Assembly: GCA_964537285.1 (NCBI GenBank) | Contig: CAZHZT010000072.1 | Coordinates: forward strand, 1 to 28,881 | Source of the DNA: an uncultured Saprospiraceae bacterium | GTDB taxonomy: Bacteria > Bacteroidota > Bacteroidia > Chitinophagales > Saprospiraceae | Direction: 5' to 3' | Length of the DNA stretch: 28,881 nucleotides | Shown: positions 3,361 to 28,881 of the stretch, piece after piece | Layout: the number at the start of each line of letters is the position of its first letter | Position numbering within the stretch: position 1 is the first letter of the stretch | Notes under the pieces: model-generated | The model's input: the letters and a program-made list of their open reading frames with translations, nothing else | What the model was told of the DNA's origin: nothing | The model's database searches: none | Made by a program: the position numbers and the translations under genes

Positions 3361-3529
3361 CTAGTGCTTCAGGAACTAAATCCTTGATAGCTTTAGGGGC
3401 GATTTTTTTGGTGGCAAACGAGGCGCGAAGAGGGAGCATAGCCCAAAGCTACGTGACCGATGAGCAACGAAGTAGGCCGCCAAAAGAAGCCTTCAAAAGT
3501 GTCAAGGATTTAGTTCCTGAAGCACTAGG
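3361..3529. repeat. MITE-like element. It has 27-bp perfect terminal inverted repeats (ctagtgcttcaggaactaaatccttga ... tcaaggatttagttcctgaagcactag) around a 115-bp partly self-complementary core. It sits in the divergent GT2/lon promoter region.
   Basis: Inverted repeat read directly: 3361-3387 against 3503-3529. Confidence 0.6.
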
Positions 3530-3583: not shown

Positions 3584-6025
3584 ATGCCTTTCGAATCAAA
3601 GACCAGGATTAGGAATATGTTTGAAGAATTATTTGTACCCTCTAGTTTGGAAGAAGAGTCTGACTTCATGCCAATTTTTTCTATAGATGAAGAAGATGAA
3701 CATGTGGATGAAAGCGAATTGACACATTCCGTCCTACCTGTTTTGGCATTAAAGAATACAGTTCTGTTCCCAGGTATCATTGCTCCAATAACGGTGGGCC
3801 GCGACAAATCGCTCAAAGCTATTAACAAAGCCTACAATTCAGAAAGACTCATCGGAGTCCTTTCTCAAAAAGATAGTGACCTGGAAGAACCAGAAATCGA
3901 TGACCTCTACAGAGTAGGAACTGTAGCCCGAATCGTTAAATTACTCAAAATGCCAGATGGCACAGCAACGGCCATATTGCAAGGGCGCAAGCGATTCAAA
4001 TTAGATGAAGTACTTTTTGAAGAACCATACATCAATGGTCGTATAAGCTTCCTTGACTACGCTCCGGTATCCAATGAACTGGAATTCGAAGCACTGCTTT
4101 CTTCCATAAAAGATATGGCCAGAAAAATTATCGAGCTCTCCCCAAATATTCCTTCTGAAGCAATCGTAATGCTCGATAATATTTCCCAGAGTTATTTCTT
4201 GTTGAACTTTATCGCCTCCAACCTTGGGGTCAATGTACGCAAAAAGCAAGCTATCCTTGAGCAAAATGATTTGCTTGAAAAAGCCAAGGACATCCTCAAC
4301 CACATGGATAATGAACTTCAACTACTGGAGTTAAAAGGGCAAATCGAGGCCAAAGTCCGGGGAGATATCGAAAAACAACAACGCGATTATTTCCTTAACC
4401 AACAGCTCAAAACCATTCAGGAAGAACTGGGGCAGAACCCCCAGGAGGAAGAAATTGTCAACCTCATTGAAAGAGGAAAAAAGAAAAAATGGCCCGCTGA
4501 AGTCAAGAAAGTATTCGAAAAAGAGATCAACAAAATTAAACGCACCAATCCTCAAGTAGCTGAATACAGCGTTTTACTCAATTATGTCGAGTTACTTCTC
4601 GATCTACCCTGGGAAGACTATACAAAAGATAATTTTAACCTCAAAAAAGTACAAAACGTACTGGACAAAGATCATTATGGGCTCGAAAAAGTTAAAGAGC
4701 GCATCCTGGAACACCTGGCCGTACTTAAACTTAAAGGGGATATGAAGGCCCCGATTGTATGCCTGGTCGGGCCTCCCGGCGTGGGAAAAACTTCTTTGGG
4801 CAAATCTATTGCAAAAGCGCTGAAGCGAAAGTTTGTGCGCATGTCTCTCGGTGGCCTGCACGATGAATCGGAAATTCGTGGGCACCGGAAAACATACATA
4901 GGAGCAATGCCTGGCCGTATCATTCAATCTTTGAAAAAAGCCCAATCTTCCAATCCGGTATTTATATTAGATGAAATTGATAAAGTAGGTAAAGATTTTA
5001 GAGGAGACCCCTCTTCTGCTTTGCTCGAAGTACTTGATCCGGAACAAAACACCCATTTCTCAGATAACTACCTGGAAATTGAATACGATCTCTCAAAAGT
5101 TCTTTTCATTGCCACCGCTAACTCCTTGAGCACCATTCAACCGGCTCTTCTTGATCGAATGGAAATTATAGAAATCAATGGCTACTCCGCTGAAGAGAAA
5201 GTCGAAATAGCCAAAAGACACTTAATCCCCAAACAGCGTAAAGAACATGGATTAGACGGGCAGCACGTGCGCTTCAAAAACGAGATCATCGCTAAAATAA
5301 TTGCAGACTACACCAGAGAGTCGGGTGTGCGTTCATTAGATCGAACCATGGCTGCCGTAATGCGCAATATCGCTAAAAAAGTGGCCATGGAGGAAACGTA
5401 TTCGATAACCATTCGCGAAGAGGAGTTGAAAGACATTCTGGGCGCTCCTAAGTTTTCTGCCGATTTATATCAAGAACAACAACCTTATGGCGTTGCTATC
5501 GGTTTGGCATGGACTCGAGTGGGCGGCGATATCCTTTTCATCGAAGTGAGCTTGAGTAAAGGAAAAGGCAAACTAACCCTGACGGGAAATTTGGGCGATG
5601 TGATGAAAGAATCTGCCACTACCGCCCTTAGCTACCTGAAATCAAATAGCGAAGCTCTTGGTATTCCATCCAAATCTTTTGAAGAAACGGATATCCACGT
5701 TCACGTGCCACAGGGAGCTATTCCTAAAGATGGTCCATCTGCAGGAATCACCATGCTGTCAGCTTTGGCCTCAGCGTTCAATAAGAAATCCATCAAGCCC
5801 TTTCTGGCTATGACGGGAGAGATCACCCTCAGAGGAAAGGTCCTGCCGGTCGGTGGCATCAAAGAAAAGATCCTGGCAGCAAAACGGGCAGGTATCAATG
5901 AAATCATTCTTTGTAAAGAAAATAAAAAGGATATTGAGGAAATTAACGAGGAGTATATTAAAGACCTGAACTTTCAATATGTTGATAATATGCAGGAAGT
6001 GTTGGATATAGCAGTCGGGTTTTAA
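3584..6025 (+). CDS. lon: ATP-dependent Lon protease (LonA). The first ATG is used. The ORF-track start at 3575 is a TTG.
   Basis: LON N-domain '[23 protein letters not shown]', Walker A '[15 protein letters not shown]', Walker B 'FILDEIDK', and the catalytic-serine motif '[11 protein letters not shown]' near the C-terminus. Confidence 0.95.
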
Positions 6026-7013: not shown

Positions 7014-7063
7014 CCTACGCGAGGAGGTATTTCATTTTGTCGCTTTGAGAAGGTGTTTTCTTT

Positions 7064-7095
7064 GGAGAGAGGCACGCGGCCGCGTGCCTCTCTCC
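7064..7095. terminator. GC-rich perfect palindrome (ggagagaggcacgcggccgcgtgcctctctcc), a likely bidirectional rho-independent terminator. It is nested inside an outer inverted repeat (7028-7043 / 7122-7137) built from the motif atttcattttgtcgc.
   Basis: Palindrome with T-rich sequence on both flanks. The outer arms share a 15/16-mer with 24281-24296. Confidence 0.6.
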
Positions 7096-7280
7096 AAAAA
7101 TAATCTTTTCTCTTGCAGGTAGTGACAAAATGAAATGAACCGATGCGAGGAGAGGGGCTTTGTTCAGAATGTTGTCTAACTTAGTTTACAGAGAATTACG
7201 TTTTCCCAAACTAAATTTGGACCTTTGTGTTCTAATGTTGAATAATTCTGTTTTTTACATTTTAAAATACGGAAAGCCTT

Positions 7281-10200
7281 ATGACGCCCGCACAACCTTA
7301 CCAGCCTAAGCACAAAGTACGTCTTGTTACAGCTGCTTCCCTATTCGACGGCCATGATGCCGCTATTAACATCATGCGCCGAATCATGCAACGATCTGGT
7401 GCCGAAATAATACATCTTGGCCACAACCGATCCGTCAGAGAAATTGTCGATACGGCGATTCAGGAGGATGTTCAAGGCATTGCCATCACTTCCTATCAAG
7501 GTGGTCATGTGGAATACCTGAAATATATGTATGACCTGCTAAGAGAAAAAGGAGCCGGCCATATAAAAATATTTGGCGGCGGCGGTGGGACCATATTACC
7601 CTCTGAAATCGAAGAACTGCACACCTACGGCATCGATAGAATATACTCCCCTGACGATGGCCGTGAAATGGGGCTTCAAGGAATGATCAATGATGTCCTT
7701 CAAAATTGCGACTTCCCGACCGGTGTCAACCTGAATGGGGAACTAAAAGCATTTACAAGCAAAAACCCTAAAGCTATCGCGCGGATGATCTCGGCCATCG
7801 AGAATTTTCCAGATGAAAACCAGGAATGGCTCGTAAACATGCAAACAGAAATAAGAAAAAATCAGAAAACCATTCCGGTCCTGGGCATTACCGGAACAGG
7901 TGGAGCGGGAAAATCCAGCTTAGTCGATGAATTGGTTCGCCGTTTCCTGATCGATTTTGAAGATAAAACCATTGCCGTCGTTTCCGTTGATCCTTCCAAA
8001 AGAAAAACCGGAGGTGCTCTGCTGGGAGACCGGATCCGCATGAACGCCATCAGCAATGACCGGGTCTATATGCGTTCCCTGGCTACTCGCCAGTCTAATC
8101 TTGCGCTTTCTAAACATGTTCAAGGCGCAGTGGATATTTTAAAAGCCGCTCAGTTCGACTTGATCATCCTGGAAACCTCCGGTATCGGACAATCTGACAC
8201 GGAAATTGTCGACCATTCTGATGTTTCACTATATGTAATGACCCCGGAATACGGGGCAGCTACCCAGCTCGAAAAAATTGATATGCTGGATTTCGCTAAC
8301 ATTATTGCGATCAACAAATTCGATAAACGCGGAGCCTTGGATGCACTCCGAGACGTTAAGAAACAATATAAGCGCAATCACGGCCTCTGGGACACACCCA
8401 ATGAAGATATACCTGTTTTTGGCACTATCGCTTCTCAGTTCAACGACCCGGGGATGAATACCCTCTACCGGGTTATCATGGATAAATTAGTGGAAAAAAC
8501 CCAGGCTGACCTGCCTTCTAATTATTTGGTCAGCAAGGAAATGAGTGAAAAAATCTATATAATCCCTCCCAATCGAACACGCTACCTTTCTGAAATTTCT
8601 GAGAACAATCGCAACTATGATAAATTCGTAGAAAAACAAGAGGAGATTGCACGTAAGCTCTTCAGCTTGAAAAACGCTATCGATGCACTTAATGAGCAGG
8701 AAATCGACCATAAAGAAACGGTCATTCAAAGCCTTGAAAAACGATACAATGACCTGGAACTGGATATCAATGGTGATGCCAAGCGTATCCTGGATGGCTG
8801 GGAAGAGAAAAAAGCTGCTTATGCCGGGGATGAATTTATATACAAAGTCAGAAACAAAGAAATCAGAGTACCTACTTTCACTACCTCATTGTCGCATTCG
8901 CGTATTCCCAGAGTAATCCTTCCTAAATTCAAAGATTGGGGAGAGATCATTCGCTGGGCTATGCAGGAAAATGTTCCTGGCGAGTTTCCTTACACAGCTG
9001 GTGTTTTCCCCTTCAAGCGCAAAGGAGAAGATCCAACCCGTATGTTCGCAGGAGAAGGCGGGCCTGAAAGAACGAATCGCCGTTTTCATTACCTCTCCTA
9101 TGATATGCCGGCAAATCGCCTTTCTACAGCCTTCGATTCGGTAACACTTTATGGCGAAGACCCCGATCATCGTCCCGATATATATGGTAAAATTGGTAAT
9201 TCAGGGGTGAGCGTTTGCTGCCTGGATGATGCTAAAAAGCTATACTCCGGTTTTGATCTTTGCGACCCGAAAACTTCAGTCTCCATGACCATAAATGGTC
9301 CGGCAGCTACCATTTGCGCTTTCTTCATGAATGCAGCTATTGATCAACAATGCGAGCGATACATTATTGAAAATGGCTTACAAGATAAAGTTGAGGCAAA
9401 GCTCAAGGAATTATACGATGATAAAAACCTGCCAAGGCCACAATACAGAGGGGATATTCCGCAAGGCAACAACAAATTAGGGCTTTTACTTTTGGGAATC
9501 TCCGGAGATCAGGTTTTAGATGAGCCAGTTTACAAAGAACTCAAAGCTAAAGCCCTTTCGGCCGTTAGAGGTACCGTACAGGCTGATATATTGAAGGAGG
9601 ATCAAGCTCAAAATACTTGTATTTTCTCTACAGAGTTTTCATTGAAATTAATGGGAGATGTACAGGAATACTTTATCCAAAACAAGGTTCGGAACTTCTA
9701 TTCCGTATCCATTTCCGGTTACCATATAGCAGAGGCCGGAGCTAATCCGATTAGCCAACTTGCCTTTACCTTAGCAAACGGATTCACCTTTGTCGAGTAT
9801 TACCTAAGCCGCGGAATGAATATTGACGACTTCGCCCCTAATTTATCTTTCTTCTTCTCCAATGGCGTGGATCCGGAATATGCTGTGATTGGCCGCGTTG
9901 CCAGAAGGATATGGGCAAAAGCCTTAAAACATAAATACGGTGCTAACGAACGCTCTCAAAAACTTAAATACCATATTCAGACTTCCGGTCGCTCCCTTCA
10001 TGCTCAGGAAATCAGCTTCAACGATATACGAACAACCCTACAAGCATTATATGCTATTTATGACAACTGCAACTCTTTGCATACCAACGCTTATGATGAG
10101 GCCATCACTACACCCACAGAAGAAAGTGTGCGCCGCGCAGTAGCGATTCAGATGATCATTAACCATGAACTGGGATTAGCCAAAAACGAAAATCCATTAC

Positions 10201-10667
10201 AGGGTTCTTTTATAATTGAGGAGTTGACGGACCTGGTGGAAGAAGCTGTCTTAAGTGAATTTGATCGCATCACTGAACGGGGTGGTGTGCTTGGTGCTAT
10301 GGAAACCATGTACCAGCGCAGCAAGATCCAGGAAGAAAGCCTGTATTATGAAACGCTTAAACACACGGGAGAATATCCCATTATTGGTGTAAATACGTTT
10401 TTAAGTAAAGAAGGCTCACCCACGGTTATTCCGCAGGAAGTAATCCGCTCCACTTCGGAAGAAAAAGAAGCTCAAATCAGTACCCGCGATAATTTGCACA
10501 ATGCATCGGCAGAAAAGGGAGCGCAGGCTCTTCGTCAATTGCAGGAGGCATCTATCAATAACCGCAATATCTTTGAAGAATTGATGGAGGCTACAAAATA
10601 CTGCTCTTTGGGGCAGATCACCAATGCCTTGTATGAAGTAGGCGGGCAATATAGGAGGAATATGTAA
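7281..10667 (+). CDS. icmF: Fused isobutyryl-CoA mutase (IcmF): a B12-binding domain, a MeaB-like G-protein chaperone and an acyl-CoA mutase catalytic domain in one 1128-aa polypeptide.
   Basis: N-terminal cobalamin-binding 'DGHDAAINI...GGGG' (DxHxxG-type). Central P-loop GTPase '[17 protein letters not shown]', MeaB/ArgK-like. A C-terminal ~550-aa mutase TIM-barrel region ('YHIAEAG', 'IGVNTF'). The length and domain order match IcmF. Confidence 0.85.
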
Positions 10668-10702
10668 AATGCTTTCCCTGTTCTATTGGGGTAAAAAAAG
10701 AC

Positions 10703-10811
10703 GTTCTTTGACAAATTGTGTGGAACTTTGAAATGATAACCCTTGAATGCCCTTGTGGTTGAAAGGGTTATCATTTTGAAGTTCCATTTTCCACAATTTA
10801 TGTCAAAGAAC
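10703..10811. repeat. Copy 1 of a ~110-bp imperfect palindromic element (gttctttgacaaattgtgtggaactttgaaatgataaccctt ... aagggttatcattttgaagttcc...caaagaac)
   Basis: It is self-complementary, with arms of about 45 nt. It is about 95% identical to the reverse complement of 24409..24518. Confidence 0.75.
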
Positions 10812-10812
10812 T

Positions 10813-10862
10813 AAAAACGAAAGGCCTGTGCTCGCGGATGCGAGCACAGGCCTTTCGTTTTT
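10813..10862. terminator. Strong bidirectional rho-independent terminator (aaaaacgaaaggcctgtgctcgc-ggat-gcgagcacaggcctttcgttttt) after icmF
   Basis: 18-bp GC-rich stem flanked by an A-run and a T-run. Confidence 0.85.
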
Positions 10863-11854: not shown

Positions 11855-14026
11855 ATGGCAACTTATGTATTTATTATCATCGGCGGGGTCATCGTCCTGC
11901 TGAGTGTAGGGATCCTTGCGGCTATCGTTTCCTGGTATAAGAAGACCCCTCAGGGCCAGGCACTGGTTCGAACCGGTAGCGGCGGAACTAAAGTCGCTTT
12001 CGATCGAGGAATCTTTGTCATCCCCGTTCTTCATATGGTCGAAACAATGGAGCTTTCTGTAAAAACCGTCGAAATTGCCCGTATGAAAGAAGATGGGCTG
12101 ATTTGTAAGGACAATATGCGGGCAGACATCAAAGTCGTCTTCTTTGTTCGCGTAAATCAAAACGTCGATGACATTCAGAAAGTGGCTCAAACCATTGGAT
12201 GTATCAGGGCTTCTGACCCCACGACCCTGAACAACCTGTTTGAAGCCAAATTCTCAGAAGCCCTGAAAACCGTTGGTAAACGCTTCGAATTTGTAGAACT
12301 CTACGATAATCGAGAAAAGTTCAAACAAGCTATCATCAACATTATAGGCTCCGATCTGAATGGCTATGTGCTGGATGATTGCGCTATCGACTATTTGGAA
12401 CAGACTCCGATGGAGTTCTTAAAACAAGATAATATCCTTGACTCCGAAGGTATTAAAAAGATTGCTGAACTTACCGCTGTTCAAAAAATCAAGGCCAACC
12501 AAATTCGTCGCGAAGAAGAAAAAACCATTAAAGAACAGAACGTCGAAGCTAAAGAAGCTATCCTTGAATATGATCGACAATTGACGGAAAAAGAAGAACG
12601 TCAAAAAAGGGAAATCGCTAATATCCGCGCTCGCGAAGCGGCTGAAATTGCTAAGATAAATGAAGAAGAAAGGCTGCGTTCTGAGATGGTACGCATCCAA
12701 ACAGAAGAGGAGCTGGCTATAGCCGAAGAAAATAAAGCACGCCAGGTCATTGTTGCTGCCAAAAGTAAGGAACGTACAGAGGCCATCGAAAATGAACGTG
12801 TACAAAAGGATCGCTTATTGGAACAAACCGAACGTGAACGCATCGTTACACTAGCCGAAATCGAAAAGCAGCGGGCCATTGAAGAAGAGAAAAAGAACAT
12901 CCAGGATGTCATCAAAGAGCGAATCATCGTTGAGAAAAAAGTGGTTGAAGAAGAAGAAAAAATTAAAGACACCCGCGAATTGGCAACGGCTAATCGTTCC
13001 AAAGAAGTAGCGTTGATTAAGGCCGATGAAACCGGAGAAGCTACTATAATAAAGCGCCGCAAGGAGGCAGAAGCAGAAAAACTAGCCGCTGAGATCCAGG
13101 CAAAAACCATGTTGATCGAAGCAGAAGCTCAGAAAAATGCAGCCGAAAAAGAAGCGGAAGCTCGTAAAATTAACGCAGAAGCAAAAGCCGCTGAGGAAGC
13201 AACCATTGGCCTGTCTGAAGCTCAAGTCACTGAAGCTAAAGCCAGAGCCAAAGAGGAAGAAGGCAATGTTGAGGCAAAAATCATTGAACAAAAAGCAGTG
13301 GCAGAAGCAAATGGTATCTCAGCGAAAGCAGAAGCTCTCCGCAAACAAGGAAATATGGAAGCCGAAGTATTGTTCGAAAAAGGTCAGTCTGAAGCTAAAG
13401 TCATCGAATTACAATCCCTGGCAAAAGCCAAAGGTACTGCGGAGCAAGGCTCAGCAGAAGCTTCTTCTTTGGAAAGCAAGCTATTAGCTGAAGCTAAAGG
13501 CGTAGAACAGAAAGCCATGGCCATGCAAAAACTGGACGGCGTCGGCAAAGAGCACGAAGAGTTTAAGTTACGCCTGGAAAAAGAAAAAGAAATTGCACTG
13601 GCAAATATCAATATCCAGGCTAAAATCGCTGAAGCACAGGCTCAAGTTCTGGCTGAAGCATTTAAGAAAGCTAATATTGACTTGGTTGGTGGCGAAGCTT
13701 CTTTTGTTAACAACATCCTTAATGCCATTAATCGGGGTAAAACCATCGATGGATTAGTAAATAATAGCGAAGTGCTTTCAGAGTTAAAAAATGGTTTGTT
13801 ATCTAATAATGCTCAAGGCTTGGGTAGCCTGGTTACGCGGCTTCGAAACCTGATTCAGGAAATGGGCATTTCTACAGAAGATATTAAGAACCTGACATTG
13901 TCTTCGCTGCTGCTTAAGTTGCAATCTCAGGCCACCGATGGCAAGCGCTCAATTGTCGAAGATTTGATGAATACAGTGGCTGGTTTGGGCATTGGTGATC
14001 AGGAGGTGAAAGCGTTGCTTTCGTAA
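11855..14026 (+). CDS. Flotillin/SPFH-domain protein, YqiK-like, with an extended Ala/Glu/Lys-rich coiled-coil tail (723 aa)
   Basis: N-terminal TM helix. 'ALVRTGSGGTKVAFDRGIFVIPVLHMVETMELSVKTVEIARMKEDGLICKDNMRADIKVVFFVRVN' is the SPFH/flotillin core. It is followed by about 350 aa of EA-rich heptad repeats. Confidence 0.9.
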   Translation: MATYVFIIIGGVIVLLSVGILAAIVSWYKKTPQGQALVRTGSGGTKVAFDRGIFVIPVLHMVETMELSVKTVEIARMKEDGLICKDNMRADIKVVFFVRVNQNVDDIQKVAQTIGCIRASDPTTLNNLFEAKFSEALKTVGKRFEFVELYDNREKFKQAIINIIGSDLNGYVLDDCAIDYLEQTPMEFLKQDNILDSEGIKKIAELTAVQKIKANQIRREEEKTIKEQNVEAKEAILEYDRQLTEKEERQKREIANIRAREAAEIAKINEEERLRSEMVRIQTEEELAIAEENKARQVIVAAKSKERTEAIENERVQKDRLLEQTERERIVTLAEIEKQRAIEEEKKNIQDVIKERIIVEKKVVEEEEKIKDTRELATANRSKEVALIKADETGEATIIKRRKEAEAEKLAAEIQAKTMLIEAEAQKNAAEKEAEARKINAEAKAAEEATIGLSEAQVTEAKARAKEEEGNVEAKIIEQKAVAEANGISAKAEALRKQGNMEAEVLFEKGQSEAKVIELQSLAKAKGTAEQGSAEASSLESKLLAEAKGVEQKAMAMQKLDGVGKEHEEFKLRLEKEKEIALANINIQAKIAEAQAQVLAEAFKKANIDLVGGEASFVNNILNAINRGKTIDGLVNNSEVLSELKNGLLSNNAQGLGSLVTRLRNLIQEMGISTEDIKNLTLSSLLLKLQSQATDGKRSIVEDLMNTVAGLGIGDQEVKALLS

Positions 14027-14040
14027 TTTTCCATTGCTAG

Positions 14041-14108
14041 CGTTTGGTGAAGGCTGAAGCCTTCGTCGTTGCGGATACTGTGACGAAGGCTTTAGCCTTC
14101 GCCGAACG
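14041..14108. repeat. BIME-like pair of REP-type palindromic units in inverted orientation (cgtttggtGAAGGCTgaAGCCTTCgtc ... gacGAAGGCTttAGCCTTCgccgaacg). They lie in the flotillin-to-ATPase intergenic spacer.
   Basis: The unit family matches the palindrome carried by the 74-bp tandem repeats at 28627..28881. Confidence 0.7.
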
Positions 14109-14156
14109 TAATATAAAACGTCAAACTGCATCAACCACATTTTAAAGTTGCTTATA

Positions 14157-17100
14157 ATGACAAATAACCCTTCCAATGAACTAGAGAGAGGCAGTTATGA
14201 AATCATACGGAATCGACTCCATAAACAAAGTCAAGAACTTCAAAATCGCCTCGATAAACTCAATAACCTCAGAAAAAAAGTCTTTGGAAACGTTGAGTTC
14301 AAACTCGTTTCCAACGATCGCATCAATACCTCTAATTATTGTATTGCCAGAGATATTGCCGCTTTTGGCAATTACTGCCTCTTTGGATATAACGTGCAGA
14401 TTGGCTTGCGCTCAGAGACCACCCTGCGCGATGTCTTTAGCCTCTACCAATACAAAGATCAGCGTTTCCAGGAACAAGAGCTGACACTCCTAAACGATGA
14501 CAAGTTTAAAGCGGATTTTAAAAACCTTTATAGATATTATAGAAATGCCTTCTTTACAAAATTTGTAAAACAAGGACCTTTCCTTTATATGGTATTCCAG
14601 CTCTCTGACAAAGTCGGGGATTACAAATCATTTAAATGGCTACAAAAAGAAGAGCACTTGGAGTATGTCGATGGCCGAAGTGAACATGAGCTTAAACGTC
14701 CGGATCAATATGAATTCCAATGGACCCGGGCACATCGCGAAATGTATCGCAATGGAGAACATCCCCACATTTCCATCCTCGACAGGGTGTTTGTCGAAAC
14801 AGTAGGCGGAGATCTGACCATTAAAATTGAAGATAATACATCTGATGGACTGGGTATCTATCGCGAGGATGTGGAACATGCCGAGCAAACCCTTGATGAT
14901 GCGGAGTATTTCTTTGCCGACCTTGGCAACATGATCGCCCTGAAAATCAAGCCTTACCAGGAGGCATTTCGCTACTTTATTTTTAATGATAAAACACAAC
15001 AAGTCCAAAGAATTGATGCTCTGGGAGAATCTGGAATCTTATTACCGGATCGCCAGGGCTTGGTATTCCCGAATGGCTATTATTTGCAATCCGGAGATTA
15101 TAAGATCTTCAATCCCGATCTTAAAAAAAAGCATTTTGAGAAAAGAATCGTTTCCTCCAATGGCGAAGACTTTCTCTATGTCTTTTTTAATGATGAAAAA
15201 GGAACTTATGTTATTCTCCCCTACAACATTATTGAGCAAAAGGCAAACATTCCTATATACTGTAACGGGTTTACCTTATTTCCCAATGGAGAACTGGCCA
15301 TTTTCAGAAGTGAAAACGAACCTACTAAACATCATGTCATTCAGATTTGGCAAACCCCCTTTCTAAAAGGAGAACCTGCCCCTTCCCAGCATTCTGATGA
15401 ATTCATATTCAAAATTGGCAACAAGGAAGTGGTTAAGGCTATGGCTGAAATCAATGACGTACTTATCCTTTGCAGGAAAGAAGATTCATACGCCAATTTG
15501 TATGACGATATCCTTAAGGAGTCTACGGATATTCTGGATTCCTTCCACTGGTTGAATCAGGAAAGTACATTCAGAATTGATGAGCCAGTTACTGCCATCA
15601 AAGACATTGCCGCTACGGCTATTGAAGCCTTCGAGAAAAAAGTAGATGCAGAACGAGCAACAAAACAAGAAGTCGAAAAAGTTAACCAATCCTCTCAAAC
15701 GCTTTTTGATAAAATTAAGCGGGCTAACTTCGAATCTGTTGAAGAATACGTCAATACACTCACTCAACTGAGGCAGCTCAGGGGAGAAATCATCTCGCTT
15801 AAGGATCTACGCTATGTGGACGCTGAATTCGTTGACACCCTTGAAAAACAAACCAAAACATTTTTAGCTAAACTTTCTGAAGAGTGTGTCGGCTTTTTGC
15901 TGCAAGACGATGCGCTTTCCCCCTACGAATCCAAAATAAAAGAACACGATGTCCGGATAAAGGAAATCACGACGGTAAAAATTGCCAATGATCTCGAAGA
16001 GGACATTAATAGCACAGGGGCGGCCTTGGAACTACTTATCGATGTAGTAAGCAACCTTAAGATCGAAGATACCACCCAAACTACCCGCATTATTGATAAC
16101 ATTTCCGCACTTTATGTACAATTAAACCAATTAAAGGCTTCTGTTAAAAAAGAAGCCAAAGCCTTGGCAACCAAAGAAGCTTCCGCAGCTTTTGGTGCTC
16201 AATTAAAGTTAATAGATCAAGCTTTAGTCAATTATTTAGACCTGGCTGTCAGCCCTGAAAAATGCGACACCTACCTCACCAAATTGATGGTCCAGATCGA
16301 AGAACTGGAAGGAAAATTTATTGAACTGGATGACTTCATTGAAGAAATTGGTGAGAAAAGAACCCATATATTTTCCGCTTTTGATCAAAAAAAGGCTAGG
16401 CTCCTTGAGGAACGCAACAACCGCACAGCTGCCATTGAGCGTGCCATTGACCGAATGTCGGAAAGCATCCAGAACCGGGCGAATGCTTTATCCGATAAAA
16501 ACGAGATCAACGCCTTCTTCTCTTCTGACCTGATGGTGGACAAGGTTCGGGACCTGATCAGCCAACTCAGAGAGCTTCAGGATAGCAATAAAGCAGATGC
16601 TGCTCAAACCCAATTGAAGCGTTTAAAAGAAGAAGCTCTGCGGCAATTAAGAGATAAAACAGAACTCTATCTGGAAGGTGGAAGCCTCATTCGCTTTGGC
16701 AAACATACTTTCAGCGTCAATATCCAACCCCTCGAACTTACGATGGTAAATCGCGAAGATGCGCTTTTACTTCATCTTACCGGGACGAGTTTTTTCATGC
16801 CTCTGGAAGAACCTGAATTAATAGACACCCAATCTGTTTGGAAGCAAGCTTTGCCTTCAGAAAACGAAACGGTTTACCGAGGAGAGTTTCTGGCTTATTC
16901 CATTTTTAAAAATAAAAATGGCCTTGGAAATAATACAAACTGGGAGGCTTTTGTAAAAGAGGAGGCACAAAGCCGTTATCAGGAAGGATATGTGAAAGGC
17001 GTGCATGATCAGGATGCCGAAAACATCCTAAAAGCCTTGCTGGAATTAGATCGTTCAGTTGGGCTGCTAAGGTTTGCCCCCGATGTCCGTGCATTGGCAC

Positions 17101-19037
17101 GCTATTTCTGGGAGTTACAAATAGACGTTGAAAATCGTGCCTTGTTCCAAGAGCAATTGAAGAGTGCAGGCATGATCCGCCGGTTTTTCCCAACCACCCA
17201 TGAATTTGATTACCTGATCGAAGATATTGAAGGAGTGCTGCGAGCTGAAAGTCGAGATCAACTTATTCGGGCATTCAATAACACAAATGATAAGCTGAGC
17301 AAAGTTGCGCAATATTTATTTTACCAACTTTCAGATGGAGAATCCTTCGTTATCTCTCCGGAAGCTGCTGGTTTATACGATAATTTTAAAAAGTATTTGA
17401 ACATCCAGAAAGGCGATTCCATCTATCAGAATTCCATTGCTGAGCTGGAAAAACATCCGCTGGAACAATTTCAATTGATCAAAAAATGGATGATGGCTTT
17501 CTTGCATCAGCAAAGTTTAACGGATGCCATTCCTTTCCTGAATGAGACCAGCATTTTGCTGCTTTTAGAACCGGAAAACTATTCTAAAAAAGCTGTACTA
17601 AACGCCAAAACTACTTTAAAGCTTGAAAACTTACACGGCGATCACCCTGTTATTGTAAACAACGAATACAAACTTGACTTTCTGGACTTTACAGAAAAAA
17701 TGGAGCATTTTCACAATGAAAGGCTTCCTCTATTCAATCGATTTCAAGAAGCCAAAAGAGGTGTATTGCATAAATATCGGCAAAAACTACAGCTAGAGTC
17801 TTTCAAGCCCAGGGTGCTAAGCTCCTTCGTCCGTAATAAACTAATTGACAAAGTCTATCTCCCTATCATTGGAGATAATCTGGCGAAGCAAATTGGTGTT
17901 GCAGGAGAAAACACCCGAACAGATCGCATGGGTTTGCTCTTACTGATCTCCCCTCCAGGTTATGGCAAGACAAGCCTGATGGAATACGTTGCGAATCAGC
18001 TTGGTTTGATTTTCATGAAAATCAATGGCCCCGCAATTGGTCACAGAGTAACTTCTCTTGATCCTAAGGAAGCACCTAACCGGGCTGCTGCCCAAGAACT
18101 GAACAAGCTCAACCTGGCTTTGGAAATGGGCGATAACATCATGCTTTACCTCGATGATATCCAGCATTGTCACGCCGAGTTTTTGCAAAAATTCATCTCT
18201 TTATGCGATGCTCAACGTAAGATCGAAGGTGTATTCAAGGGGGAAAGCAAACAATACGACCTAAGAGGAAAGCGGGTTTGTGTAGTCATGGCCGGAAACC
18301 CATACACAGAGAGCGGTGAAAAGTTTAAAGTTCCCGACATGCTTGCAAACAGAGCGGATATTTATAATTTGGGAGATATTATCGGAGATACCGAGCACCT
18401 TTTCAAACTAAGTTACATTGAAAATGCGCTAACATCGAATAGTACTCTTCAGCAGTTGGTAAATAAGAGCAACGAGGACATGCACCAACTCATTGAAGTG
18501 GCTGCTACCGGGAATCAGGAGAGCCTGCAACTGGAAGCTGATTATGGAACTGGAGAAGTCGAGGATTATCTATCGGTGCTAAAAAAGCTTATCCTTATCC
18601 GGGACGCTCTGTTTAAGGTCAATAAAAACTATATTCAATCGGCAGCAATGGCTGACGATTATCGCTCTGAACCCGCATTTAAGCTTCAAGGATCATACAG
18701 AGACATGAACAAACTGGCCGAAAAAGTAGTACCCCTTATGAATGAAAAAGAGGTATCTGCTTTGTTATTAACGCATTATGAAAGCGAAGCTCAAACATTA
18801 ACTACAGGAGCAGAAGCTAATTTTTTAAAACTTAAAGAAATCCTAGACCTTATCCAGGCAGACGAGAAGAAACGCTGGGAAGAAATTAAGCATACTTTCC
18901 AGAAAAATAAACTGTTTAGAGGTGGCAATGGCGACAATCCAGTGGCCCAGGCAGTGGCGCAGTTGGGTATGCTTACCGATGAGCTGGAAGGGATAAAAAA
19001 GGCTTTGAATAGCAATAAAGAGGAGGCTGGCTCATAA
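14157..19037 (+). CDS. Giant uncharacterised protein (~1626 aa from the first ATG; the ORF-track start at 14148 is a TTG) with a C-terminal MoxR/AAA_5-like AAA+ ATPase module
   Basis: Walker A 'LLLISPPGYGKTSLMEY' (about nt 17958). Walker B 'IMLYLDDIQHCHAE', parallel to MoxR 'LLDEINRA..E' but with DD. Sensor-1 'VVMAGNPYT', parallel to the AAA_5 'ATQNP/TMNP' motif. An Arg-finger/helix-2-insert region 'DMLANRADIYNLGDI'. The N-terminal ~1250 aa have no motif I can recognise and contain coiled-coil stretches in the middle. Confidence 0.85.
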   Translation: MTNNPSNELERGSYEIIRNRLHKQSQELQNRLDKLNNLRKKVFGNVEFKLVSNDRINTSNYCIARDIAAFGNYCLFGYNVQIGLRSETTLRDVFSLYQYKDQRFQEQELTLLNDDKFKADFKNLYRYYRNAFFTKFVKQGPFLYMVFQLSDKVGDYKSFKWLQKEEHLEYVDGRSEHELKRPDQYEFQWTRAHREMYRNGEHPHISILDRVFVETVGGDLTIKIEDNTSDGLGIYREDVEHAEQTLDDAEYFFADLGNMIALKIKPYQEAFRYFIFNDKTQQVQRIDALGESGILLPDRQGLVFPNGYYLQSGDYKIFNPDLKKKHFEKRIVSSNGEDFLYVFFNDEKGTYVILPYNIIEQKANIPIYCNGFTLFPNGELAIFRSENEPTKHHVIQIWQTPFLKGEPAPSQHSDEFIFKIGNKEVVKAMAEINDVLILCRKEDSYANLYDDILKESTDILDSFHWLNQESTFRIDEPVTAIKDIAATAIEAFEKKVDAERATKQEVEKVNQSSQTLFDKIKRANFESVEEYVNTLTQLRQLRGEIISLKDLRYVDAEFVDTLEKQTKTFLAKLSEECVGFLLQDDALSPYESKIKEHDVRIKEITTVKIANDLEEDINSTGAALELLIDVVSNLKIEDTTQTTRIIDNISALYVQLNQLKASVKKEAKALATKEASAAFGAQLKLIDQALVNYLDLAVSPEKCDTYLTKLMVQIEELEGKFIELDDFIEEIGEKRTHIFSAFDQKKARLLEERNNRTAAIERAIDRMSESIQNRANALSDKNEINAFFSSDLMVDKVRDLISQLRELQDSNKADAAQTQLKRLKEEALRQLRDKTELYLEGGSLIRFGKHTFSVNIQPLELTMVNREDALLLHLTGTSFFMPLEEPELIDTQSVWKQALPSENETVYRGEFLAYSIFKNKNGLGNNTNWEAFVKEEAQSRYQEGYVKGVHDQDAENILKALLELDRSVGLLRFAPDVRALARYFWELQIDVENRALFQEQLKSAGMIRRFFPTTHEFDYLIEDIEGVLRAESRDQLIRAFNNTNDKLSKVAQYLFYQLSDGESFVISPEAAGLYDNFKKYLNIQKGDSIYQNSIAELEKHPLEQFQLIKKWMMAFLHQQSLTDAIPFLNETSILLLLEPENYSKKAVLNAKTTLKLENLHGDHPVIVNNEYKLDFLDFTEKMEHFHNERLPLFNRFQEAKRGVLHKYRQKLQLESFKPRVLSSFVRNKLIDKVYLPIIGDNLAKQIGVAGENTRTDRMGLLLLISPPGYGKTSLMEYVANQLGLIFMKINGPAIGHRVTSLDPKEAPNRAAAQELNKLNLALEMGDNIMLYLDDIQHCHAEFLQKFISLCDAQRKIEGVFKGESKQYDLRGKRVCVVMAGNPYTESGEKFKVPDMLANRADIYNLGDIIGDTEHLFKLSYIENALTSNSTLQQLVNKSNEDMHQLIEVAATGNQESLQLEADYGTGEVEDYLSVLKKLILIRDALFKVNKNYIQSAAMADDYRSEPAFKLQGSYRDMNKLAEKVVPLMNEKEVSALLLTHYESEAQTLTTGAEANFLKLKEILDLIQADEKKRWEEIKHTFQKNKLFRGGNGDNPVAQAVAQLGMLTDELEGIKKALNSNKEEAGS

Positions 19038-22344: not shown

Positions 22345-22386
22345 AAACATGAGGCATCCTGAAAATTTGGGATGACTCATGTTTAT
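22345..22386. terminator. Second copy of the 40-nt hairpin family (aaacatgaggcatcctg-aaaatt-tgggatgactcatgttt), placed between convergent genes
   Basis: It differs from copy 1 (88..128) by 3 substitutions. These keep pairing through G-U wobbles, so they are compensatory. Confidence 0.65.
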
Positions 22387-23368: not shown

Positions 23369-24217
23369 TCATTTTTCACGCTTATCATAGCCAAATATTT
23401 TCGTATCCTTTTTCTTCCCAAACCAGACAACGCGGTTCGATGTTAAATAAACTTCTCCCTCCGTTTCAGGTAAGCCAATTAAAAAGTACGTCGCTTCGGC
23501 CCTAAACTTTGGATTGTAAACGTTAATGGTCTTGTCTTTTTGCCATAAAATATTTCCTTCGAAGGCTTGTATACCTCTTATACCATCGCCAAGGGGATGC
23601 ATTGAAGCCCATTGAGCGAAAAGGTCAAATAATATAAGGGAGGACTCCTGTTCATCTTGCTCGATTAGAAAAACAAAATTACCATACTCCCAAAGTTTCT
23701 TTGCATTTAATCGCTTGCCAATCTGCTGAACAAGGGGGCCACTTCGAAAAAGCTTTTCCCCTTTTCGGTTTATTTTAAGTAGCTCTGCATTGATATCATC
23801 GTATATCCATAGATTACCATCATTGGCTAAGGCAATGGCACTTACTAAAGTATATCCAAGGTCTACCAAGTTAATCTGGGCGGTAGGGTTTAGAGTTCGA
23901 TCCAGAAAAAGAACGGTTCCGAAATCTTTATAAAAAAGTAGGATCTCCAAGGGATTGTTGACATTTATGGAGTGAAGCCGCCCTCTGCGCACATCACTAT
24001 GCCGAAATTGCTCGACACCATCTGAATTATACTTAATCAAATCGTTGGCAGGAGTGATTAGGTATAACTGGCCTACTTTGTCCATTTTGACATCAACAGC
24101 TCTCTGGGATAGCGTGATGGATTCTTGGAGTATTAGGGTATCAAGGATCGTCTGAGCTTGAATACTATACGATAATACTGCAATGGAGAAAACAAGAAGA
24201 GGCGAAGCGTTTTTCAT
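23369..24217 (-). CDS. Secreted hypothetical protein (about 282 aa from MKNASPLL). The ORF-track start at 24283 adds 22 non-signal residues.
   Basis: Signal peptide 'MKNASPLLVFSIAVLSYSIQAQ'. No recognisable catalytic motif. Its tryptophan-rich, repetitive character suggests a beta-rich fold. Confidence 0.6.
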   Translation of the reverse strand: MKNASPLLVFSIAVLSYSIQAQTILDTLILQESITLSQRAVDVKMDKVGQLYLITPANDLIKYNSDGVEQFRHSDVRRGRLHSINVNNPLEILLFYKDFGTVLFLDRTLNPTAQINLVDLGYTLVSAIALANDGNLWIYDDINAELLKINRKGEKLFRSGPLVQQIGKRLNAKKLWEYGNFVFLIEQDEQESSLILFDLFAQWASMHPLGDGIRGIQAFEGNILWQKDKTINVYNPKFRAEATYFLIGLPETEGEVYLTSNRVVWFGKKKDTKIFGYDKREK

Positions 24218-24408
24218 GATGGTAGTGTTATAACATCCAAAACGTTTATTATTTGCAGAAAGTATTAAGCAAATTAGGTGCATTTCATTTTGTCGCTGCC
24301 CAAACTACACTTACTCACTTTCCCATAACACTTACTCAATGCTCCGGTATTTAACCCAATTCTGCTGCATTTTTGGATTGTAAGTAGTTCACGGAATTAT
24401 TAATCATA

Positions 24409-24518
24409 GTTCTTTGACATAAATTGTGGAAAATGGAACTTCAAAATGATAACCCTTTCAGCCACAAGGGCATTCAAGGATTATCATTTTGAAGTTCCGC
24501 ACAATTTGTCAAAGAACG
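24409..24518. repeat. Copy 2 of the ~110-bp palindromic element, in inverted orientation relative to copy 1. It ends 23 nt upstream of the VIT-vWA gene start.
   Basis: It is the reverse complement of 10703..10811 with a handful of mismatches. Confidence 0.75.
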
Positions 24519-24540
24519 TTAATCATTAAATCTTCAATCC

Positions 24541-27537: not shown

Positions 27538-27540
27538 TTA

Positions 27541-27677
27541 ATCACAGATTACGCAGAGGACACAGATGAGGGTGGAGCTACGCTCCAATTAGATGATTAA
27601 GTCGGCCTGCGGCCGATAAGACTCCTTCTTTGGAGCGTAGCTCCAACACCATCTGTGCCCTCTGCGTAATCTGTGAT
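27541..27677. repeat. 137-bp near-perfect palindrome with 28-nt outer arms (1 mismatch), inner arms ggagctacgctccaa/ttggagcgtagctcc, and centre tcggcctgcggccga. It starts immediately after the VIT-vWA stop codon.
   Basis: Read directly from the sequence. It could form a hairpin of about 60 bp. Confidence 0.7.
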
Positions 27678-27691
27678 CAAACACAAGAAAA

Positions 27692-27880
27692 ATGAAACAC
27701 TTAGTCCTACTTACACTAATTATAACACCACTTTTCCTCTCTGCCCAATTCTACTACCACGATCAATTAGTTGTGAACGCGGACATACTAAACCTCCGCT
27801 CAGAACCCAAAATCGCCAAAAATGTAATTGGGAAACTCAAAGAAGGCACCTATCCCTCTCTTCACAGCCTTTCGATATAG
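27692..27880 (+). pseudogene. Short ORF (62 aa) with a signal peptide and the first half of a bacterial SH3 (SH3b/SH3_3) domain. It is likely a gene remnant. It overlaps the 3' end of the convergent response-regulator gene by 19 nt.
   Basis: 'MKHLVLLTLIITPLFLSAQ', then 'VVNADILNLRSEPKIAKNVIGKLKEGT', which resembles the N-terminal half of SH3_3. The ORF stops before the domain is complete. Confidence 0.35.
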
Positions 27881-28608
27881 CGCAATACCTGAGTTTTTCG
27901 TCGATGAGCAACGGGGATATTCTCGCCATCCTTCATGGTGAGGTATCCGCCGTCTGCTTTGTCAAAAGCAGTGACTTGCGTCATATTTACAAGATAGGAA
28001 TGATGTACCCGCAGAAAACCTTGGTCATGTAGTAGTTGGTCGAACTCCTTTAAGGTACGGGAGACCATAAGCTTTCCAACGTTTTCCACCCGGAAGATGG
28101 TGTAATTGCTATCCGATTGGCAGTAATAAATATCCTGAATCGGCACCACATTAATCTTCTCCGCGGTGTGCAAAGCAATCTTTCTGGGAGCCTGATCAGA
28201 CTTCAACGCATTGAGCAATAATCCTCTACTTTCTGTGCCCGAAAACTGCAGCAAACGTTTGGCTTTTTCAACAGCCTCTTTAAGATCTTCAGGATTGATG
28301 GGCTTCAACAAATAATCAATGGCTGAAAACCTGAAAGCACGAATAGCATGTTCATCCGATACTGTAGTGAAAATTAGTTGAAAATGCATGTCCTCGGGCA
28401 ATATTTCCAGAAGATCAAAGCCCGTACCATCCCCTAGTTCCACATCCAGAAACACAAGATCCGGGTCAAGCTCTTTAATGCACTTAGCCCCCTTTACTAC
28501 ACTATCTGCATGCCCTACAATAGTTACATCAGGACAATAAGTACTTAAGTCCGCTTTCAAGACTTCCAGTGCCTGTGGCATATCTTCAATGATGACTGCT
28601 TTAACCAT
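27862..28608 (-). CDS. LytTR-family two-component response regulator (REC + LytTR DNA-binding domain; 248 aa from MVKAVIIED). The ORF-track start at 28701 would run into the tandem repeats.
   Basis: Receiver 'VIIEDMP...DLVFLDVELGDGTGFDLL' with the phospho-acceptor Asp. C-terminal LytTR region 'IYYCQSDSNYTIFRVENVGKLMVSRTLKEFDQLL...FLRVHHSYLVN'. Confidence 0.85.
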   Translation of the reverse strand: MVKAVIIEDMPQALEVLKADLSTYCPDVTIVGHADSVVKGAKCIKELDPDLVFLDVELGDGTGFDLLEILPEDMHFQLIFTTVSDEHAIRAFRFSAIDYLLKPINPEDLKEAVEKAKRLLQFSGTESRGLLLNALKSDQAPRKIALHTAEKINVVPIQDIYYCQSDSNYTIFRVENVGKLMVSRTLKEFDQLLHDQGFLRVHHSYLVNMTQVTAFDKADGGYLTMKDGENIPVAHRRKTQVLRYIERL

Positions 28609-28626: not shown

Positions 28627-28881
28627 CTGTTCGGCGAAGGCTACAGCCTTCGCCATTCTAAACGCAAAAATCTGTTTTGCGGACTTGTATAACACTTGCA
28701 TCGTTTGGCGAAGGCTACAGCCTTCGCCATTCTAAACGCAAAAATCTGTCTCGCGGACTTGTATAACACTTGCATCGTTTGGCGAAGGCTACAGCCTTCG
28801 CCATTCTAAACGCAAAAATCTGTCTCGCGGACTTGTATAACACTTGCATCGTTTGGCGAAGGCTACAGCCTTCGCCATTCT
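28627..28881. repeat. Tandem array of a 74-bp unit, at least 3.4 copies, truncated by the window end. Each unit carries the REP-like palindrome GGCGAAGGCTacaAGCCTTCGCC plus an A/T-rich segment with an ACTTG-n6-ACTTG direct repeat. The array begins about 20 bp upstream of the LytTR regulator start codon.
   Basis: The palindrome copies start at 28633, 28707, 28781 and 28855, giving a period of exactly 74. The units are near-identical, with 2-3 substitutions in copy 1. Confidence 0.85.

Follow-up and report, generated by a model that had tools for sequence, protein, structure and literature searches.

What is the small GC-rich palindrome that occurs twice, in inverted orientation, between a flotillin gene and the gene for a giant ATPase in an uncultured Saprospiraceae bacterium, and again several times in a tandem array farther along the same DNA? 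The original prediction took it for a REP-type palindromic family resembling the REP/BIME systems of enterobacteria. We analyzed the whole stretch of 28,881 nt that carries these copies (hereafter, the window) together with related loci from other genomes, designated by L numbers. In our assessment, with a probability of about 0.8, these hairpins are REP elements, short palindromes folding as single strands, and a REP-associated tyrosine (HUH/Y1) transposase (RAYT) of the kind typical of Bacteroidota has them as its cognate substrate.

The core GAAGGCT-NN-AGCCTTC has six matches in the window (~42% G+C), as compared with none in 100 dinucleotide-preserving shuffles, and the predicted GC-rich palindromic family is therefore real. 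The unit spans 22–27 nt and consists of a 5′ GTT(C/T) foot followed by the stem (C/T)GG(C/T)GAAGGCT, which makes 10–11 bp, and a loop of 2 nt (GGCT-NN-AGCC) rather than the three nucleotides originally proposed. The six copies that had been counted are indeed six core matches, but they represent only two independent loci, because the array copies are one tandem amplification and the other two form one inverted pair. Both loci are intergenic, lying 14.5 kb apart in unrelated contexts, and the likeness between the doublet and the array reaches past the stem to the 5′ CGTTY foot and part of the tail. Further variants (a GTTYGSYG foot with any hairpin, or any GC-rich hairpin) were sought in the window, and the six known copies alone were recovered. 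Rfam at gathering thresholds placed no family at the doublet or the array. Permissive thresholds added just matches of the generic long-hairpin kind, to miRNA precursors of eukaryotes and far under the cutoff; the match of the doublet to mir-548, at 36.9 bits against a gathering score of 90, was read as an artefact of this type. The features are collected in Table 1.

Table 1. Features of the window that bear on the palindromic hairpins (positions count from the first nucleotide of the window).
Feature	Position	Strand	Details
Flotillin/Band_7-family gene	11855–14026	+	upstream of the doublet
REPIN-like doublet	14040–14109	+	one long hairpin when folded; −54.7 kcal/mol, z = −7.25
REP-like copy 1	14041–14067	+	foot CGTTT and hairpin GGTGAAGGCT-ga-AGCCTTCGTC; G·T wobbles pair on the + strand
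Doublet spacer	14068–14081		14 nt between the two tails; place of the RAYT gene in relatives
REP-like copy 2	14082–14108	-	minus-strand reading CGTTC GGCGAAGGCT-aa-AGCCTTCGTC; G·T wobble pairs on the minus strand
DUF3686/DUF7902/AAA ATPase gene	14157–19037	+	1626 aa; downstream of the doublet
LytTR-type response-regulator gene	27862–28608	-	start codon 20 nt from the array
Tandem array of a 74-nt REP-like module	28629–28881	+	runs off the window end; Tandem Repeats Finder
Array hairpins	28633–28654, 28706–28729, 28780–28803, 28854–28877
Second small hairpin of the module	28664–28680	+	GCAAAA-atctg-TTTTGC
Core match starts	14049, 14085, 28636, 28710, 28784, 28858

The region 14041–14108 reads cgtttGGTGAAGGCTgaAGCCTTCGTC, then gttgcggatactgt, then GACGAAGGCTttAGCCTTCGCCgaacg. 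Its two 27-nt arms are 89% complementary and stand 14 nt apart, and as a single strand the doublet folds far more stably than its shuffles, whose mean is −28.2 kcal/mol. The heads, with their feet at 14042 and 14107, point outwards, while the tails point toward the spacer. Two inverted REPs, a short spacer and a single long hairpin are the marks of a REPIN, and all of them are present here, so that the inverted pair noticed originally stands as a REPIN-like doublet.

The array is organized differently. Tandem Repeats Finder reports a period of 74, 3.4 copies and 98% matches, and the units are direct head-to-tail repeats of one module. The second hairpin of this module (GCAAAAATCTGTTTTGC) is intact in the first unit and degraded (GTCTCGC) in the later ones. 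Folded array units give a 10-bp hairpin on either strand, with z about −7, and the G·T wobble is lost in these copies (GGCG...CGCC). The array is best explained as a recent tandem amplification of one module, made of the REP hairpin and the small GCAAAA..TTTTGC hairpin, with slippage or unequal exchange as the likely cause. The label 'BIME-like' fails for this locus: in E. coli BIMEs, REPs of the Y and Z types take turns, oppositely oriented and joined by defined linkers, whereas the array repeats one 74-nt module, and a single REP type, not a mosaic of two, was found in the window. The likeness to BIMEs is that of REP clusters at intergenic or intercistronic positions. Upstream of the LytTR response-regulator gene, 20 nt separate the array from the ATG (28608, minus strand), and the array must lie in the 5′ UTR or the promoter region of that gene.

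The reading of the hairpins as a REP-type family is upheld by three independent relatives, L182, the L159 lineage (with L179–181) and L164, in each of which a RAYT gene is flanked by a homologous hairpin. The 5′ GTT foot, the CGGCG(A/T)AGGC stem and the G·T wobble are common to the window and these RAYT flanks. The L182 contig was reached through the second-best flotillin homologue (P0002, 74% identity) and not through the hairpin motif. Along this contig, flotillin is followed by a terminator, a REP, the RAYT and an inverted REP, and the RAYT gene lies directly downstream of the flotillin gene, in the position that the doublet occupies in the window. The encoded protein has 187 aa and scores 97.7 bits on the NCBIfam model NF047646 ('REP-associated tyrosine transposase'; cutoff 80), and its gene is flanked by GTT[CGGCGTAGGC tgt GCCT(G/A)CGTCG] at 4223(+) and 4916(-), the former reading GTT[CGGCGTAGGC tgt GCCTGCGTCG]. 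By a count of matches made by eye in alignment A1, the L182 hairpin and copy 1 of the window are 78% identical over 32 nt, a match that takes in the foot and the tail CGTCGT(A/T)GCG and in which one A:T base pair has become T:A. The 5′ flank in L182 runs on into GCAAAACTCCGTTTTGC, just as the first array unit runs on into its second hairpin at equal distance, and over 57 nt that include both hairpins the two modules are ~67% identical (again counted by eye in A1). Judging from this alignment, the array unit and the module in the 5′ flank of the L182 RAYT gene are homologous. A second REP variant, GTTCGGCGTCCATACGGATGC, was also seen upstream of the main REP when the RAYT region of L182 was read (4027–4110 and 4160–4940).

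In L159, a 200-aa ORF has inverted copies of GTTATACGAAGGCT-cc/gg-AGCCTTCGTAT on both sides; it matches Pfam Y1_Tnp, scores 111 bits on NF047646 and fails the IS200 model. Three further contigs of the same lineage, L179–181, show the same arrangement at a syntenic site. One strain (L179, 10623–10810) has the 3′ end of the RAYT gene and the downstream hairpin partly duplicated in tandem, the duplicated hairpin being mutated. The L164 contig breaks off within its RAYT gene, whose product is 52% identical to that of L182; here the hairpin precedes the RAYT N-terminus by 43 nt. At all three RAYT loci the tails face the gene, with the GTT feet on the far side, which is the polarity of the window doublet. 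Given this identical heads-out, tails-in polarity, the doublet looks like a REPIN, with the geometry of a REPtron from which the gene is missing. The association with a RAYT, for which a search had been proposed, is thus borne out by three relatives but not by the window itself: the 29 kb contain neither a RAYT gene nor a remnant of one, there being no transposase ORF and the best tblastn hit with two RAYT queries having E = 0.85. The 12–20 kb around the RAYT genes of L179–181 and L182 held no further hairpin copies, indicating that high copy number is not universal.

Comparison of 20 copies from the window and its relatives revealed how far the structure is conserved. In 98.2% of cells the bases pair, and three stem pairs are changed on both sides; since most of the 20 sequences were fetched with a palindromic pattern, the pairing of the core is partly by construction, which leaves the outer pairs and L182 unaffected. 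The third stem pair is G·T in 13 of the 20 sequences. A G·T wobble becomes an A·C mismatch on the other strand, and the element is therefore strand-specific, as expected of a single-strand substrate. Instead of the canonical GT[AG]G foot of GTAG-type REPs (RAYT groups 2/3), 16 of the 20 aligned copies have the foot GTT(C/T/A).

The transposases themselves form a large family. The L159 RAYT has 1727 homologues at E <= 1e-10; most of those listed are ~185 aa long, with the JGI name RayT or the label Bacteroidota or Ferruginibacter on several. For many of these homologues the longest contig measures just 1–2 kb; such hairpins break short-read assemblies. The RAYT genes of L169–178, whose products are ~62–64% identical to that of L159, have different hairpins of a similar style clustered at their flanks, for instance CTGCGAGGCT-tg-TAGCCTCGCAG and TGCGAAACT-aaa-AGTTTCGCA, and GAAGGCT..AGCCTTC copies are absent from these ten loci. 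The difference in flanking hairpins at this level of RAYT identity indicates that the REP sequence co-varies with the RAYT lineage. When individual loci were read, L173 and L176 (~9700–10000, 10560–10760) had four to eight different small hairpins by the RAYT gene, including GTTGCCAAAGGCAAC, and in the L176 region similar hairpins lay on both sides of the gene.

The survey of Quentin et al. (2018, PMC6006769) described RAYT subclass 2.6, equivalent to group 5 of Bertels, as Bacteroidetes-dominated and flanked by 'atypical secondary structures', and defined it by NH[LIV]H, YIH[QN]NP, a W motif WQ and a length of ~179 aa in addition to phylum and flanking hairpins. The L159 protein (200 aa) has NHIH and YIHQNP and the L182 protein (187 aa) NHVH and YIHNNP, so that motifs (NH[IV]H, YIH[QN]NP), length (185–200 aa) and phylum all agree. 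Both proteins have WT in place of WQ, and we therefore assign the RAYTs beside the homologous hairpins to subclass 2.6 only tentatively, from these sequence motifs. What resembles the subclass 2.6 REPtron is the single RAYT gene, the inverted, non-GTAG flanking hairpins, the copies elsewhere in genomes and the phylum; what differs, apart from the W motif, is that the window shows REPs only, and PMC6006769 gives no consensus of the 'atypical' structures with which to compare them. In Bertels et al. (2017, PMC5581495), the flanking 16-mers of group 5 occur ~31 times per replicon. REPs in Bacteroidota are also listed by PMC3733652 and PMC12306157. The original remark that REP-type elements are not well documented in this phylum was consequently half right, the RAYT subclass and the listed REPs standing against it. 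The hairpins belong to a known kind of element, inasmuch as Bacteroidetes RAYTs with 'atypical' flanking hairpins had already been described.

Other known systems resemble the element in part. As in the REPINs of Pseudomonas fluorescens and the REPs of E. coli, short imperfect palindromes lie outside genes, an inverted doublet forms one long hairpin, and the RAYT flanks match the dispersed doublet in sequence and geometry. Unlike those elements (Bertels and Rainey; RAYT groups 2 and 3), the foot is GTT(C/T) instead of GT[AG]G, and the clade and the phylum are different. The CGTC-tagged REP families 1–4, which occur mostly as inverted dimers downstream of genes, in Bacteroidetes as well (Di Nocera et al. 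2013, PMC3733652), share with the window the small palindromes, the inverted dimer downstream of a gene and a CGTC at one end of the doublet copies. In these families, however, the CGTC is unpaired, the stem has 8–9 bp and begins with A/T, the loop has 4–5 nt, a CCA-like tail follows and there is no transposase, whereas in the window element the CGTC is paired inside a 10–11-bp stem that begins with G/C, the loop has 2 nt and RAYTs are associated. On the rules for stem and loop, membership in the CGTC-tagged families was rejected.

The hairpin was also sought in other genomes. A scan of GTDB genomes with RYGAAGGCTNNAGCCTTCRY returned at least 113 loci, and the matches listed belong mostly to unrelated families, including Thermogutta, GTAG-tagged Eggerthellaceae, Clostridia and Methylococcales; among the matches listed, no DNA is in common with the window beyond the hairpin itself. 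An identical stem by itself is weak evidence, since the 7 bp recur in REP-like families of other phyla that are unrelated to this one, and the REP argument is built on the foot, the wobble, the tail and the second hairpin. The GAAGGCT..AGCCTTC core is that of abundant and otherwise unrelated repeats in Planctomycetota, Actinomycetota (with GTAG feet), Clostridia and Methylococcales; loci with the stem include nine of Thermogutta MAG-77 (L056, L068, L086, L105, L117, L122, L133, L140 and L148) and eight of Eggerthellaceae (L051, L057, L083, L103, L113, L128, L141 and L156). The Bacteroidota matches listed share the GTT/GCT foot, the stem CGGCGAAGGCT..AGCCTTCGTCG and the G·T wobble at the third pair, often with a 'TAAAAGCAAG' hairpin next to them. 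In the 24 Bacteroidota loci among the matches listed, every hairpin lies between long ORFs, and in one Dysgonamonadaceae MAG (Nc350_bin116) the hairpin is present on at least six contigs. The dispersal and intergenic bias that had been proposed as a check are accordingly found in other Bacteroidota MAGs. In a metagenome scan, a 26-nt pattern matching all six window copies retrieved six contigs, L164 among them, all with GTTCGGCGAAGGCTC(C/T)AGCCTTCGTC and with the loop CC in five and CT in L166. A scan of viral contigs found 46 with one site each and none with multiple copies. One hairpin-bearing locus, L058 of MAG SZAS-39, also contains a Flavo-1 RNA (RF01705, 60.6 bits) at 7030–7135.

The genes next to the doublet define the setting in which it might act. 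The best homologues of the window flotillin are 72–75% identical, carry a precomputed PF01145 Band_7 assignment and are named flotillin family protein (Saprospiraceae); nothing in the protein collection is more than 75% identical, and the named matches are from Saprospiraceae or Bacteroidota. A Pfam scan of the window protein gave no match. The ATPase start at 14157 is backed by the N-terminus of the L183 homologue. The doublet begins 14 nt past the flotillin stop codon (14024–14026) and ends 48 nt before the ATPase ATG. No T-tract was seen after the hairpins of the doublet or the array, and the terminator scan makes no call at them; a reading as intrinsic (Rho-independent) terminators was rejected for want of a T-tract behind either hairpin. 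The sole call in the doublet region is a weak site at 14006–14024. There, a weak terminator-like hairpin, GTGAAAGCGTTGCTTTCGT then AATTTTCC (14006–14035), overlaps the flotillin stop codon and may be a residual native terminator of flotillin.

The adjacency of flotillin and the DUF3686 ATPase was found in one of the five relatives examined, L183, where the GC-rich hairpin in the 92-nt spacer, CTGCGGAGC-gaatg-GCTCCGCAG, is unrelated and lacks a clean T-tract. More usually flotillin closes a transcription unit, as in L160, L182 and L184, where a canonical T-tract terminator follows it. The gene after flotillin varies (L183, 927–8071, as against L160, L161, L182 and L184), being the DUF3686 ATPase, a RAYT, genes on the opposite strand, or PagL with an aminotransferase. 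Because the next gene differs among relatives, the 3′ flank of flotillin may be a hot spot of recombination or insertion. In the window, co-transcription of flotillin and the ATPase is plausible from the gene arrangement. REPs and BIMEs of E. coli protect mRNA 3′ ends and cause attenuation, as at malE–malF and elsewhere. By analogy, the doublet in a transcript might serve as a barrier to 3′-exonucleases or as a partial attenuator between flotillin and the ATPase, a role that we would entertain without favouring it. The hairpins may also modulate the expression of their neighbours, namely the flotillin/giant-ATPase pair and the LytTR regulator.

Other explanations of the hairpins have to be weighed against these data. 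The window has no RAYT, REP families without a dedicated transposase have been reported, also in Bacteroidetes (PMC3733652), and the array copies are without the G·T wobble; these observations would suit a RAYT-independent palindrome, either a decaying 'orphan' REP of the CGTC-like kind or a MITE moved by another transposase, whose likeness to the RAYT flanks would then reflect common ancestry and not a current partnership. We regard this as improbable, given that the canonical REPtron geometry, with homologous hairpins bracketing the gene, is found for three independent RAYTs and that the element misfits the CGTC definitions of an A/T-first stem and a 4–5-nt loop. Moreover, neither the terminal inverted repeats nor the target duplications of a DDE-type MITE were noticed in an unsystematic reading of the flanks. 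Somewhat less probable still are locally evolved, non-mobile cis-regulatory hairpins, acting as terminator, attenuator or mRNA-stability element, which would owe their likeness to convergence or to a single local duplication. Convergence is conceivable for a stem such as GAAGGCT..AGCCTTC that recurs in unrelated phyla, and the place of the doublet behind flotillin is indeed taken in relatives by a terminator or a different hairpin. Yet neither hairpin has a T-tract or a terminator call, the two distant loci have foot, stem and tail in common despite their unrelated contexts, and homologous modules, including the second hairpin, flank RAYT genes elsewhere.

For the array, a palindromic repeat at regular spacing could also suggest a CRISPR-like or other spacer-bearing array with the hairpin as its repeat. 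This reading is rejected because the units are the same throughout: whole units are 97–100% alike and the 'spacers' are identical. The window, in addition, has no cas gene or cas domains, and there is no match to an Rfam CRISPR family; we give this explanation practically no credence. Under the preferred reading of the hairpins as REP elements, a RAYT in the source genome, whose presence we infer, would spread or maintain the copies by recognizing the hairpin in single-stranded DNA. The conserved G·T wobble near the base of the stem would make the REP structure strand-specific, and the doublet would represent the geometry of the RAYT-bracketing REPs of relatives with the gene absent.

The window contains other palindromes as well. 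An internally palindromic element of 113 nt is present at 10701–10813 and 24407–24519, the copies being 96% complementary. They bracket 13.6 kb with the YqiJ-like, flotillin, DUF3686 ATPase, CBS, GNAT, aminotransferase and flavin-reductase genes and an unannotated gene for a 304-aa protein (23369–24283, no Pfam match), and may either belong to a second family of the MITE/REPIN-like kind or form the two ends of some larger unit. Yet another palindrome, the 40-nt near-perfect AAACATGAGTCATCCCGAAAATTCGGGATGACTCATGTTT, is repeated at 89–128 and 22345–22384 (93% identical), the latter copy lying between convergent genes; this makes three such families in the 29 kb. More long intergenic palindromes are found at 27538–27680, 7047–7112, 3361–3528 and 10813–10862, with arms of 51, 33 and 47 nt and a perfect 24-bp stem; this last, flanked by A5/T5 after an IcmF-like mutase gene, has the look of a bidirectional terminator.

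To conclude, REP/RAYT systems are, to our knowledge, well studied in Gammaproteobacteria only. No general concept is changed by the present work, REP/RAYT in this phylum having already been described at the survey level. For the Bacteroidota RAYT clade the literature offers no REP consensus, and our analysis supplies a concrete one, with a GTT foot, a CGGCG(A/T)AGGC stem, a G·T wobble and heads-out geometry. It also provides a natural comparison of a filled with an empty site: behind flotillin, L182 has a RAYT, and the window a doublet with no gene in it. A bolder interpretation, which we advance as a speculation and consider rather doubtful, is that the GTT-footed wobble hairpin is the hitherto undefined recognition element of a Bacteroidota-specific RAYT clade and the doublet a RAYT-less 'solo REPtron'. 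If so, conservation of the recognition element would reach from the Saprospiraceae-like bacteria as far as the Bacteroidales of termite guts, and a foot and guide other than GTAG would imply a different mode of recognition. Ancestrally, a RAYT gene would have stood downstream of flotillin and later been lost; the doublet would be what marks this locus, and would offer a direct snapshot of the origin of a REPIN.
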